Positions 57,001 through 64,000 of a DNA stretch of 64,000 nt are shown here, one piece after another. Where the stretch lies: assembly GCA_036339995.1 (NCBI GenBank), contig JAYYZW010000039.1, forward strand, positions 35,852 through 99,851, given 5' to 3'. The position numbers are program-made. This DNA comes from Pseudomonadota bacterium (GTDB taxonomy: Bacteria; Pseudomonadota; Gammaproteobacteria; Ga0077536). Position 1 is the stretch's first letter; each line of letters starts with the position of its first letter.

Positions 57001-60000
57001 CACCAGCAGGCCCGCGACGCGACCGACACGGACCGCGCCGCCGATGACGACCACGCCGACGATGAGCATCGCGAGGAGTCCGGTCGCAAGGTGCGTGATC
57101 GACCATTGTGCCGCCAGCAAGTTGGCGAGCTGATTCGATTGAAAGACGCCGAGGCAGCCGACCATACCGAAGGCGGCAAACGCCAAGGCGAGCGGCCGGT
57201 AGCGCCGCCCGAGCCCGACTTCAATGTAATACATCGGGCCGCCCTGCATTACGCCCAGGGCATCGGGCTTGCGGTACATGCAGGACAGGGTGCAGGTGAA
57301 GAACTTGGTCGCCATGCCGAGCGCGCCCGCGACCCACATCCAGAACACGGCACCGGAACCGCCCATGGTGATCGCGATGGCAACGCCGGCGATGTTGCCC
57401 ATGCCAATGGTGCCGGACAGGGCCGCGCTCAGCGCTCGGAAATGGCTGATCTCGCCGGGGTCCCGAGCCCGATCGTAGCGCCCGGACAGGATGGCGAACG
57501 CATGACCCATGTGTCGCAACGGTACGAGACGGCTGATGACCGTGAAATAAAGGCCGGCCGAACCCAGCATTACGACCAGCGGCAGGCCCCATACGAGGCC
57601 GACCGCCTGGTTCCAGAACGCACTGAACGCTTCCATCGAGGCTCGCTGAAAAAGAGGACATTCTACTTTTAAGCGGTCGTGGCCCAAGGGGAGCCGCCCC
57701 GAACCAAGGATCCTTTGCCAGCCCGTAGGCATACGCCAGGACGCTTGACGCCGGCGGTTTTAGAGTTGTACCGTATTCAACAAAGATTCATGATATGAAA
57801 CTTCCGTCAGGCTGCATCCGCGCTCCACAAAGCGAATCGGGCGCATCGGCCCGCGACTCGGCGCGTGGAGGGTTAAAGACATGAGCCCCAAGCTGAAAAG
57901 TCCTTACGTCGTCATCGGCGCGGGCATCCACGGGCTCAGCACGGCCTATCACCTCGCGTCGTCACTCAAGGCCAGCGGCCGCGGCAGTGGCGACGACATC
58001 CTCGTCATCGACAAAACCGGCATCGCTGCCGGCGCCTCCGGCATCGCCTGCGGCGTGATCCGCAACAACTATTTTCAGCCCGCAATGCGGGAATTGATGG
58101 CGCATAGCGTGGCCGTCTGGGAAACCGACGCGCAAGGCTTCAGCTACCATCCGGTCGGCTACATGCAGATCGCTCCCGAAAGCATGCGCGACGACGTCGG
58201 CACGATCGCCGATCAACAGCGCGAGATCGGATACGAATCCGTCTTCATCGAAGGCGCGTCCGCATCCGCGAAATACATGAAAGGCCTGTTCGACGATTGG
58301 CAGGCGCAGGGCATCACCTCGGTACTCCACGAAAAGAAAGGCGGCTATGCGAATAACAAGCCGAGCATCTACAAGCTCGCATCGAGGGCCCAGAGTCAGG
58401 GCGTTCGCATCGAGACCGGCGTCACGGTCACGGGATTTTCGACCATTCACGGTAGCGGTGGCGCGATACGCGGGGTTGAGACCGATCACGGCTTGATCGA
58501 GTGCGACTATGTGATCGTCGCGGTCGGACCGTGGATCAACCAGCTTTGGAAAATGCTCGACTTGCCCGCCACGATCACGATTAAGGGCACCGATGGCGTC
58601 CTAAATGAAAACGTCGGCATGTGGATATTCTGGTCGCTGCAGGAAGGCACGCTCGGCGTCGATCCCAATTATCAGATAACGAACGACGGCAGGATGCCGC
58701 CGGTCATTCACGTGGATAGCGATGCGCCGCTGTTGTCGGATGTCGACGGCTCAGTGATCACCGAACAGATGTGGGGTATTTATTACAAACCAGACGTAAA
58801 TTTTGGCGGCGTGCAAGGTGGTGCGGCGCCCGACAAGGTCGATACGCCGCCGGACGAGGTCAAGGTAGACCCTTACGGTCCGGAGTCGCCGGATTACGTC
58901 ATGGGAGACGAATTCGCGCGTCGCTGGTGTTCGGCGCTGGCGCATTGCCAGAAGCGTTTCGAGGGCAAGATCTCGATTTACAAGGATGAACCGTCCGGAG
59001 GCATCGGCTGCTTCACGCCCGACAGCTTCCCAGTGTTCGACGTGTTTCACGACAACTGCTACGTCATCGCCGATTCCAACCACGGCTACAAGATGATCGG
59101 CGTCGGCCAGCTGGTCGCGCAGGAGATCCTGGGAGAGACCTCGCGCCTGTTGGAGCCGTTCCGATTCTCTCGCTACATCGAAGGCCGCCTCCACCCGGTA
59201 TCGCACAGTCCGTTTCCGTGGAGTTGAAGCAGGCGTGGATCCGACGGGTGGCATGAGTCACAACGAATAACGATAACTCTGCAAAGAGAATATGGGAAAA
59301 CCGCTAATGGCAACGGAAACCGATCTCGAAAAATATGTCCAAATGCCGGGCCGCGACGAACTGGTCGAGCAGGTCCGTGAGAAGATCGATGAACTCGGCA
59401 TACGCTATATCTATTACCAATTCATATCGGTCACGGGACGCATCGTCGGTAAGGGCATTCCGGCGGATCACTGGGAGCGCACCGCCGCGCGGGGCTTTCA
59501 GCTCGTATATGGTTCGACCGCAAACCTGTACGTCGATCGCCACGGCGAGTACATCGGATACGGGCCGGAAGCGATGGAACTCGTCGGCATCCCGGATCCC
59601 GAGACCTTTTGCCAGCTACCGTGGGACAAGCGGGTCGCCCGCGTGTTCTGCGTGTGTTTCCGCAACCGCGAGGAACGCGAAAATGCCGGTGCGAACCTGA
59701 GCTCTGACTGCCGCGGCAACCTCAAACGCTTTCACGCGGCGTTCAAGAAAAAATACGGCCTCGATTTCCGTGTCGGCACCGAGCCCGAGATGATGTGGCT
59801 CAAGCGCGGCGAAGACGGCATGCCCGACGGCGGGTTTTCCAAGCCCAACTGCTATCACATCGACCAGTTTGAATCGCTGCGCCCGATCTTCATGCGGGTC
59901 ATCGAATACTGCAACGCGATGGGGCTGGACATGATCCAGGGCGATCACGAAGACGCGCCCGGACAGCTCGAACTCAACTGGGCCTTTGACGATGTCGTGC

Positions 60001-63000: not shown

Positions 63001-64000
63001 CAATGCATCCAGTCGCGCTATGGGTTCAATCCGCAACACCTGCGGCTCGCGGACGGTTGCGAGTTTTTCATTGGACAGGGTTGTAAGGTCGGCTTGGGTG
63101 GCCACCTGATGGGCCAAAAGGTGACTGACCAGGTTGCCGAGATGCGATCCTTGCCCGCGGGGATCGACCAGCGTTCGCCCGCCCGGCATCCCGACTGGCT
63201 CGGACCCGATGACCTCACGCTGAAGATCGAGGAAATCCGGGAGGCCACCAACTGGGAGATCCCGATTCAACTCAAGCTCGGTGCCGCGCGCGTCTACGAC
63301 GACGTGCGCATGGCGGCCAAGACCGGTCCCGATTCGATCTACATCGACGGTATGGAAGGCAGCACCGGTGCCGGTCCACACCTCGCGGCTGAGGAGACCG
63401 GCGTGCCCGGTATCGCTGCGATCCGGCAGGCCCGGAAAGCATTGGACGACGTCGACAAGAGCGGCGACATCACTCTGGTCTACGCGGGCGGGATCCGTAA
63501 CGGCGCCGACGTGGCCAAGGCACTGGCGCTCGGCGCGGACGCTGTCGCCATCGGACACTCGGCGATGATGGCGCTCAACTGCAACAAGGACATCCCGGAA
63601 GCAGATTACGAGAAGGAGATCGGCGTCAAGGCGGGGTCATGCTACCACTGCCATACCGGCCGCTGCCCGGTCGGCGTTACGACCCAGGACCCGGTTTTAC
63701 GCAAGCGCCTCGATCCCGACGCCGCGGCCGAGCGGGTGTTCAATTTCCTCCATTGCCTCACGATCGAGTGCCAGATGATGGCGCGCGCCTGCGGCAAGAC
63801 CAACGTGCATTCGCTGGAGCCCGAGGATCTCGCGGCGCTCACGATGGAGGCATCGGCGATGGCGCAGGTACCTTTGGCGGGATCTCAGTACACCGTCGGG
63901 CGGCCGGACATGACGCGGTATTAAGCGGGAGCATGCAATCATGACCGACAACAAAGATATCGATCATTACCTCAAGTCAGACGGCGTCGACAGCGAGCGC

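Follow-up and report, generated by a model that had tools for sequence, protein, structure and literature searches.

Paralogues of the methylamine-to-glutamate genes form a second module in SAR11, SAR324, and marine gammaproteobacteria, with a possible role in dimethylamine catabolism

Gene content of the locus

The end of a 64,000-nucleotide stretch of contig JAYYZW010000039.1 (gammaproteobacterial assembly GCA_036339995.1; the whole analysed stretch is called the window below) is occupied by the genes DAO2, GS2, GAT2, GXG2, GltB2, and p130. By sequence comparison, this operon is distinct from the canonical GmaS/MgsABC system and forms a second glutamate-mediated amine module that is paralogous to it. 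A preliminary description had placed five open reading frames (ORFs) at 57881-63924, and ORF calls and Pfam searches confirmed all five, their location on the + strand, and the order of their domains. DAO2 (57881-59227, 448 aa) encodes a flavin adenine dinucleotide (FAD)-dependent amine oxidoreductase, which matches the Pfam domain DAO with an E-value of 1.6e-34 (120.5 bits). It is followed by GS2 (59292-60782, 496 aa), a gamma-glutamyl-amine ligase of a distinct glutamine synthetase (GS)-like clade (Gln-synt_C, 7.4e-79, 265.7 bits), whose translation may start at 59307 because its relatives have 491 residues, as the shorter product would. GAT2 (60796-61734, 312 aa) is a class-II N-terminal nucleophile (Ntn) amidotransferase subunit and a paralogue of MgsA/GlxB (GATase_6/7, about 1e-14). 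Its ORF is listed from a TTG at 60790, but the ATG at 60796 is taken as the true start because it exposes the obligatory N-terminal Met-Cys nucleophile (MCGIAG). GXG2 (61722-62564, 280 aa) is a GXGXG beta-helix subunit paralogous to MgsB/GlxC (PF01493, 5e-16, 59.2 bits), and GltB2 (62584-63924, 446 aa) is a subunit with a flavin mononucleotide (FMN) synthase domain and a predicted Fe-S cluster (Glu_synthase, 6.6e-89, 299 bits). The window ends inside the next gene, p130, of which only the 5' end is present (63941-64000, +). It was recognised through the sequences of relatives: translation from 63941 gives 20 residues (MTDNKDIDHYLKSDGVDSER), and these agree with a conserved orphan protein that is about 130 residues long.

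The module thus has the layout of MgsABC, with a separate Ntn amidotransferase carrying Cys1 and with GXGXG and FMN GltB-domain subunits, all beside a GS-like ligase. The intergenic distances along the module are 64, 13, -13, 19, and 16 nt, and this tight spacing on one strand indicates a single operon. Among species-representative genomes, a scan found 596 relatives, and the best 80 of these were examined. All locus counts given below refer to 85 related loci (86 with the window), which were taken as 21-kb genome pieces with flanks of about 10 kb and are denoted by L and a number where they have to be told apart. The gene order of the module is seen again in more than 80 loci of other genomes, and therefore the arrangement is not due to chance. 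Its GC content is that of the remaining window. A scan for promoters and terminators gave no signal above the shuffled expectation, and Rfam has no match within 53-64 kb of the window.

Sequence analysis of the ligase and the synthase subunits

In the SAR324 loci L002-L004, the canonical gmaS-mgsABC genes and a second set of the same kind are found side by side, which allows a direct comparison. The GS2, GAT2, GXG2, and GltB2 proteins of the window share 26, 32, 37, and 53% identity with the canonical SAR324 GmaS, MgsA, MgsB, and MgsC, respectively, but 80, 68, 67, and 89% with the proteins of the second set. On these alignments the window genes are not gmaS/mgsABC but members of the second paralogous set, and we named them accordingly. 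The preliminary description had noted that the genes mirror gmaS and mgsABC of the N-methylglutamate (NMG) pathway. The domain order and the kinship are real, but the genes are not the NMG genes themselves (298 bits for GS2 against a GmaS cutoff of 469.6). All NCBIfam matches within the module stay far below their equivalog cutoffs.

GS2 scores 297.8 bits against the GmaS model TIGR03105, 241.5 bits against GlnA (TIGR00653, cutoff 429), and 209.9 bits against the PuuA-type model NF045547 (cutoff 650). The GS2 copies of SAR11 and SAR324 likewise stay below the cutoff of TIGR03105 (292 and 289 bits), which the canonical GmaS proteins of the same genomes pass with 615-648 bits (648 in SAR324). 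The amine site was compared with that of RhGmaS through the alignment to 7cql, which also gave the residue numbering of GS2, using the pocket residues assigned by Wang et al. for RhGmaS. All seven amine-pocket and catalytic residues (Y147, Q175, D177, E179, E186, N188, and K30') are identical in GS2, where they are found in the segments NCYHID, QGDHEDAPGQLELN, and GRIVGKGIP. Asp50' of Escherichia coli GlnA is replaced by Val in GS2 and by Ala in GmaS, and the flap residue Glu327 is Trp in both. Asp50' and Glu327 are required for ammonium binding by true GS. Because the GmaS pocket is kept and both of these residues are lost, GS2 is, on its active-site sequence, an amine ligase rather than a true glutamine synthetase. 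The preliminary description had also classified the protein as an amine ligase, and the score below the GlnA cutoff agrees with this. GS2 also has an insertion of 24 residues (286-309) and another one in the N-domain. A neighbour-joining (NJ) tree places GS2 in a clade separate from those of GmaS and E. coli PuuA. This tree is crude (BLOSUM distances, no bootstrap) and serves only to show GS2 apart from these two clades. Neither of the two outcomes that would have spoken against the preliminary description was observed: GS2 does not group with GlnA-type true glutamine synthetases, nor do the mgsABC-like genes group with generic GlxBCD of unrelated context. The next relatives of GS2 (45-55% identity) belong to Ipu-like gamma-glutamylation clusters with a P450, a ferredoxin, a PuuD-type hydrolase, and an aldehyde dehydrogenase.

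The catalytic and glutamine-site residues of GAT2 appear intact: besides Cys1 in the N-terminal MCGIAG, the Arg of HTRMAT, the Asn-Gly of HNGQ, and the Asp of CDSE align with R73, N98-G99, and D123 of GlmS. Aligned with MgsB, GXG2 is longer by about 50 residues at the N-terminus. The most telling differences are found in GltB2. The cysteines of its ALNC and C-HTGR-C motifs align with the [3Fe-4S] cysteines of E. coli GltB (ALGC and C-HLNN-C), a fourth cysteine is present in CYHC, and the cysteine motif is found in 76 of 77 copies. The canonical MgsC proteins of SAR324 and SAR11 have D/W/D at these positions, where the absence of Fe-S cysteines as an MgsC trait is derived here from the canonical copies and is not a published definition. 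Because the cysteines of glutamate synthase (GOGAT) are kept, the second synthase is expected to contain an Fe-S cluster besides its flavin and to exchange electrons with a partner, whereas the NMG synthase is redox-neutral. This prediction does not make GltB2 a GltB. Its match to the glutamate synthase large subunit NF008730 reaches 124.7 bits (cutoff 1047) and covers the FMN domain only, its best matches among solved structures reach only about 1e-27, and no GltD is encoded within the 64-kb window. A third GlxBCD-like set, 38-42% identical to the second one, is found upstream of the module and beside amt in L010 (2739-5536, -), and its FMN subunit carries the cysteine motif, too.

The gene after GltB2 had been thought of as a possible mgd subunit. 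It encodes p130 instead, which follows GltB2 in 74 of the 85 loci. More than 8000 sequence clusters of p130 exist, all of them unnamed, and the protein has no Pfam domain. Its AlphaFold model has a predicted local distance difference test score (pLDDT) of 66.6 and no fold match in the PDB. L013 contains two p130 copies (8954-9328 and 15052-15420), the second of which is located 6 kb downstream of the module, past genes of an ATP-binding cassette transporter. In SAR324, and only there, p130 is directly followed by a 2Fe-2S ferredoxin gene (L002 15252-15602).

The flavoprotein DAO2 and a probable downstream dehydrogenase

The DAO match of DAO2 spans only positions 2-220 of the 353 profile positions, which is the FAD-binding half. 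With NCBIfam models it reaches 63 bits for soxB, far below the cutoff, and 35.9 bits for the monomeric sarcosine oxidase TIGR01377 (soxA_mon, cutoff 479.65). Given this score and the partial domain match, the database name "monomeric sarcosine oxidase" is unsupported. The best relatives of solved structure are the PDH1 beta subunit (1y56_B), dimethylglycine oxidase (1pj5), and SoxB. DAO2 had been described as PuuB-like, but it resembles the sarcosine and dimethylglycine oxidases, and BLASTP against E. coli PuuB gives just 34 bits over residues 1-64. It shares 59-72% identity with the copies that flank the module in SAR11, SAR324, and gammaproteobacterial metagenome-assembled genomes (MAGs), and it adjoins GS2 in 69 of the 85 loci. 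AlphaFold, given 31 close homologues, yielded a model of low quality (pLDDT 50).

The single flavoprotein had also been supposed to stand in place of the four-subunit dehydrogenase MgdABCD. This is probably wrong. In L001, the closest available relative, whose five module proteins are 91-98% identical to those of the window, GltB2 is followed by p130, a B3_4-domain protein, soxB-, soxD-, soxA-, and soxG-like genes, and another GS-like gene. The L001 soxB (450 bits) and soxA (776 bits) both fall short of the subfamily cutoffs for sarcosine oxidase, which are 529 and 1164, respectively. L005 and L007 likewise contain soxBDAG beyond the module, one or two genes on, and because the genes recur in all three loci the four-subunit dehydrogenase has probably not been replaced. 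The window stops at 64000 inside p130, and the 99% identical contig L087 ends within the module. The soxBDAG/mgdABCD-type dehydrogenase of the window genome is, to judge from these relatives, most likely encoded just past the window end. The B3_4-domain protein between p130 and soxB (L001 15060-15773, 237 aa; L005 15862-16467) contains a domain that is known from the PheRS beta subunit.

Distribution and genomic neighbourhood

The best 80 of the 596 relatives belong to marine gammaproteobacterial MAGs (Arenicellales, Acidiferrobacteraceae, Granulosicoccaceae, and UBA981) and, for the most part, to SAR11. In the SAR11 loci examined the module has the same gene order as in the window at 59-79% identity, and the surroundings are invariant: tmoX(-), tdm, a small ORF, DAO2, GS2, GAT2, GXG2, GltB2, p130, amt, optionally mgsABC, and gmaS. 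In Pelagibacter ubique HTCC1062, the neighbours tdm, amt, glxBCD, and gmaS have the locus tags SAR11_1303, 1310, 1313-1315, and 1316 (Smith 2013, Sun 2011). Based on the gene order and these annotations, the module appears to be the counterpart of SAR11_1304-1309, with DAO2, GS2, and GltB2 corresponding to SAR11_1304, SAR11_1305, and SAR11_1308, respectively. The small ORF between tdm and DAO2 is itself conserved in SAR11 (about 116-150 aa; L032 8144-8494 and 56 other loci) and has no Pfam or NCBIfam match.

Tdm is encoded within 10 kb of the module in 64 of the 85 loci, GmaS is present in 58, and TmoXWV in about 50. Amt adjoins the module in 64 loci, and in all four Arenicellales loci Tmm is directly adjacent. 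The Tdm neighbours score 1153-1206 bits against an NCBIfam equivalog cutoff of 1100 and the Tmm neighbours 785-822 bits against 675. In the 5-Mb genome of L085 the order is tdm-tmoWVX-amt-[module]-two-component system-tmm, and in L086 it is amt-gntR-DAO2-[module] followed further on by tdm-tmm. Only four of the 86 loci have no methylated-amine marker (the window, L087, L006, and L014), and all four are cut off at the module. All related loci with usable flanks have the module beside Tdm, Tmm, TmoXWV, GmaS, or soxBDAG. GS2 and GltB2 are also very well conserved: between the window and SAR11 or SAR324, and thus across phyla, identity is 77-80% for GS2, and it is 78-89% for GltB2, to be compared with 58% for GmaS and 56% for Tdm between SAR324 and SAR11.

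In the window genome, the surroundings are different. About 8 kb upstream of the module, at 44252-50484, are two tandem cassettes resembling N,N-dimethylformamidase (DMFase), with large subunits of 804 and 785 residues that contain a DMFA2_C domain and with small ORFs of 149, 135, and 122 residues. These cassettes had already been pointed out in the preliminary description as a source of a dimethylamine-type product. The 785-residue protein is a real homologue: it aligns over its full length with the solved N,N-dimethylformamidase large subunit 6lvb (620 bits) and reaches 427 bits with N-acetyl-beta-phenylalanine acylase. Together with the invariable association of the module with Tdm and Tmm, this homologue strengthens the link to a dimethylamine-type substrate. 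The 122-residue ORF has a weak DMF_alpha match in the near-identical contig L087. Among the related loci examined, no other lineage has such cassettes in the vicinity of the module. Divergently from DAO2, an AgcS-type symporter of the Na+/alanine family is encoded at 56296-57732 (-; Na_Ala_symp 388 bits; TIGR00835 408 bits, above the cutoff of 273). AgcS occupies this position only in the window, L001, and L087, and Amt or TmoXWV are found there in other lineages. The symporter may therefore be associated with the module in the sublineage of the window only. In L001, three copies of a 396-residue DDE_Tnp_1 transposase surround AgcS upstream of the module (1421-8326), none of which is present there in the window.

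A proposed route for dimethylamine

From this neighbourhood it is very probable that the module belongs to methylated-amine catabolism. Which amine it acts on is a different matter. SAR11 and other dominant marine bacteria convert trimethylamine N-oxide (TMAO) to dimethylamine (DMA) and lack the only known aerobic DMA enzyme. In SAR11 and the abundant marine Gamma- and Deltaproteobacteria, tmm, tdm, and gmaS have been reported present and dmmDABC absent (Lidbury 2017), and for SAR11 the fate of DMA has been reported as unknown. Because HTCC1062 grows on TMAO as nitrogen source although dmmDABC is lacking, an "isoenzyme" of the DMA step has been postulated in the literature. The taxa carrying the module are the same taxa for which the absence of dmmDABC has been reported. 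Dmm-like domains do not occur in the Pfam neighbour lists of L001, the SAR324 loci, L085, and L086, although no search aimed at Dmm was made. With respect to the chemistry, RhGmaS acts on DMA with a near-normal kcat of 2.6 s-1 but with a Km of 16 mM, compared to 27 uM for monomethylamine (MMA). The reaction is thus feasible for the GS fold, and the high Km is a reason why a dedicated paralogue would make sense. DMA as the substrate of the module seems to us a nearly even bet.

We suppose that the module captures DMA as a gamma-glutamyl amide and subsequently converts it via methylated glutamates, and we give this genomic inference a probability of about 0.5. DMA would derive from TMAO demethylase or, in the window genome, possibly from the upstream DMFase homologues. 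GS2 would ligate it in an ATP-dependent reaction to the gamma-carboxyl group of glutamate to yield gamma-glutamyl-dimethylamide, which GAT2 would hydrolyse. On GltB2, with its FMN and Fe-S cluster and with GXG2 and perhaps p130 as scaffold, the amine could then be combined with 2-oxoglutarate and reduced to N,N-dimethylglutamate. DAO2 might remove one methyl group as formaldehyde to give N-methylglutamate, a role that is in line with the activity of its relatives on N-methyl amino acids. The soxBDAG/mgdABCD-type dehydrogenase, which is encoded downstream in close relatives, would finally convert N-methylglutamate to glutamate and a C1 unit. The sequences themselves show the genes and their paralogy, the active-site motifs, the Fe-S cysteines, and the genomic association, to which the scheme adds by inference a substrate, intermediates, and an electron partner for the Fe-S cluster.

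A variant in which DAO2 demethylates gamma-glutamyl-dimethylamide directly to gamma-glutamylmethylamide (GMA), following the logic of the Puu pathway, was ranked below the route via N,N-dimethylglutamate. Flavin amine oxidases act on amine C-N bonds and not on amide N-methyl groups, so that this step would be chemically unattractive for DAO2.

Several observations weigh against the proposed route. The seven amine-pocket residues of GS2 are the same as in the MMA-specific GmaS, so the sequence gives no hint of DMA in particular. The assignment of the substrate rests on the neighbourhood and on the literature reports of dmm absence, and neither tdm nor tmm is present in the 64-kb window. The predicted Fe-S cluster implies an external redox partner beyond those in the model. 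DAO2 is not found within the 10-kb flanks of L008, L012, L013, L017, L085, and the Arenicellales loci, and in L009 and L011 soxBDAG and the canonical genes come directly after GS2, with no GAT2-GltB2 in between. In 37 SAR11 loci, GmaS is present without mgsABC in the island, so the second set may be their NMG synthase or may also serve GMA. Under nitrogen limitation, the GS2 and GltB2 proteins of HTCC1062 (SAR11_1305 and SAR11_1308) are not induced (0.67x and 0.66x, respectively), although the DAO2 counterpart SAR11_1304 is the second most induced protein of the strain, which speaks for the route. Finally, gamma-glutamyl-dimethylamide and N,N-dimethylglutamate are not documented as bacterial metabolites in the searchable literature.

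Alternative explanations

The main rival is a second route for MMA, in which GS2 would ligate MMA (e.g. with a higher affinity than GmaS), GAT2, GXG2, and GltB2 would be an Fe-S isoform of N-methylglutamate synthase, and DAO2 would be an alternative N-methylglutamate oxidase. The identity of the GS2 pocket with that of RhGmaS is what this explanation would predict, as is the position of GS2 directly before soxBDAG in L009 and L011, and in the 37 SAR11 loci mentioned above the second set would be the sole Glx-type synthase. However, GS2 co-occurs with a canonical GmaS (615-648 bits) in SAR324 and even in the streamlined genomes of SAR11, which argues for different jobs of the two ligases, and with only 26% identity and two insertions GS2 is far from being a close copy of GmaS. 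A second MMA route would also not explain why the module tracks tdm and tmm instead of gmaS and mgd, and the DMA step would still be unaccounted for. We therefore regard it as unlikely.

The same enzymology might act on another small amine, such as ethylamine, ethanolamine, or an N-methylated amino compound, which in the window genome could enter through AgcS. That AgcS replaces Amt and TmoX in the lineage of the window would fit, as would the Ipu-type alkylamine clusters around the nearest non-marine relatives of GS2 and the four different GS-like genes in the L011 island. The AgcS association is limited to three loci, however, and the constant neighbours across the lineages are tdm, tmm, tmoXWV, gmaS, and mgd and not genes for other amines, so that this possibility is less likely again. 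In the L011 island (1-10000) the four GS-like genes are GS2, the canonical GmaS, and two others at 24-27% identity, and they are accompanied by a luciferase-like monooxygenase, a PNPOx-like protein, and an N-formylglutamate amidohydrolase-like protein. The island may be a multi-amine glutamylation hub.

The model of the preliminary description, a hybrid of the NMG and Puu pathways in which one PuuB-like flavoprotein would oxidise a gamma-glutamylated, unspecified amine instead of MgdABCD, appears improbable. It got the order DAO2-GS2-GAT2-GXG2-GltB2 right, and the frequent location of DAO2 beside GS2 (69 of 85 loci) would be expected from it. However, the closest relatives encode the soxBDAG-type genes after the module, the likeness of DAO2 to PuuB is confined to the FAD-binding N-terminus (34 bits), and PuuB oxidises the free distal amine of gamma-glutamylputrescine, which a short methylated amine does not have.

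Least probable of all is a split GS-GOGAT pair for the assimilation of ammonium supplied by the neighbouring Amt (64 of 85 loci), for which the three [3Fe-4S] cysteines of GltB2 and the complete glutamine site of GAT2 could be cited, but which we reject because of the ligase active site that is devoid of Asp50' and Glu327, while the low scores of GS2 for GlnA (241 against a cutoff of 429) and of GltB2 for GltB (125 against 1047), the missing GltD, the separate GlnA and GltBD of HTCC1062, and the decrease of SAR11_1305 and SAR11_1308 under nitrogen limitation point in the same direction.

Comparison with known systems

The NMG pathway of Methyloversatilis, Methylocella, Methylobacterium, and Ruegeria pomeroyi (gmaS and mgsABC, with mgdABCD) is built from the same four kinds of protein, encoded in identical order. 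It also shares with the module the GmaS pocket residues, the location in methylated-amine islands, and, in relatives of the window, the soxBDAG/mgd-type genes downstream. The module differs in being a paralogous set with the insertions of GS2, the Fe-S cysteines of GltB2, the extension of GXG2, the additional p130, and the associated DAO flavoprotein. Apparently the same module is represented by SAR11_1304-1309 in Pelagibacter (annotated as sox, glnT, gltB2, etc.), where it is located between tdm (SAR11_1303) and amt (SAR11_1310). The window copy is instead flanked by AgcS, PhyH, GFA, and DMFase-like genes and not by tmoX/tdm and amt. The module is thus already visible in SAR11 annotations, and it is a new variant of an NMG-type pathway to which no function is assigned in the literature found. 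Of SAR11_1304-1309 only SAR11_1304 has been discussed there, as a possible amine oxidase, and the search returned no function for SAR11_1305-1309.

DmmDABC of Ruegeria pomeroyi and Methylocella silvestris would have the same role as proposed here, the removal of Tdm-derived DMA, and takes the same slot beside tdm/tmm, and according to the literature report its distribution seems to be complementary to that of the module. The proteins are unrelated, however. DmmDABC is an NADPH-dependent haem monooxygenase that releases free MMA, whereas an ATP-dependent glutamylation is proposed for the module. GlnA with GltB/GltD, the ferredoxin-dependent GOGAT, and the split archaeal GOGAT resemble the module in their domain repertoire, the [3Fe-4S] triad of GltB2, and the glutamine site of GAT2. 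The module is set apart from them by a ligase without Asp50' and Glu327, the lack of GltD, scores far below the cutoffs, and the methylated-amine context. The Puu and Ipu pathways for putrescine and isopropylamine also begin with an ATP-dependent GS-like amine ligase. They continue with oxidation by a P450 or PuuB, an aldehyde dehydrogenase, and a PuuD-type (Peptidase_C26) hydrolase, none of which is found in the module, which has a GOGAT-like synthase instead.

It is tempting to see in the module the DMA-catabolic route of SAR11, SAR324, and the abundant marine gammaproteobacteria, running via a GOGAT-derived Fe-S flavoenzyme with a new small subunit, but we hold this tentatively, at a little less than even odds. 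The lack of a DMA enzyme has been interpreted as a bottleneck of metabolism, through which DMA would escape into the atmosphere and seed aerosols. If the proposal is true, the "DMA bottleneck" of the oceanic methylated-amine cycle would be absent at the genetic level. With six conserved and very widespread genes, the module is a concrete and cloneable candidate for the DMA step, and it would define a new Fe-S-containing branch of the N-methylglutamate synthase family. The database names "glutamine synthetase", "glutamate synthase", and "monomeric sarcosine oxidase" are misleading for its proteins.

Further genes in the window and in related loci

Just upstream of the module, the gammaproteobacterial sublineage with soxBDAG encodes a PhyH-family Fe(II)/2-oxoglutarate dioxygenase (54-61% identity), which is located at 54509-55372 (-) in the window, at 8246-9094 in L007, at 7529-8369 in L009, where it appears split in two, and at 7631-8476 in L011. 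The adjacent gene at 55417-56019 (+) of the window is consistent with a formaldehyde-releasing locus. Unannotated families of about 190 residues, p198 and p188, recur beside the module or DAO2 in SAR324 and gammaproteobacterial MAGs (L002 15638-16234 (-), L018 8272-8856; L086 15859-16425, L006, L007, and L017). Farther upstream in the window, at 18663-22569, a dimethylglycine-dehydrogenase-like protein of 815 residues (DAO, FAO_M, and GCV_T domains) is followed by a class-III aminotransferase, and the former is another methyl-amine- and tetrahydrofolate-linked enzyme of the window. The region 10246-16782, which is unrelated to the module, contains the A and B subunits of a hydantoinase/oxoprolinase and a carbamoyltransferase gene.

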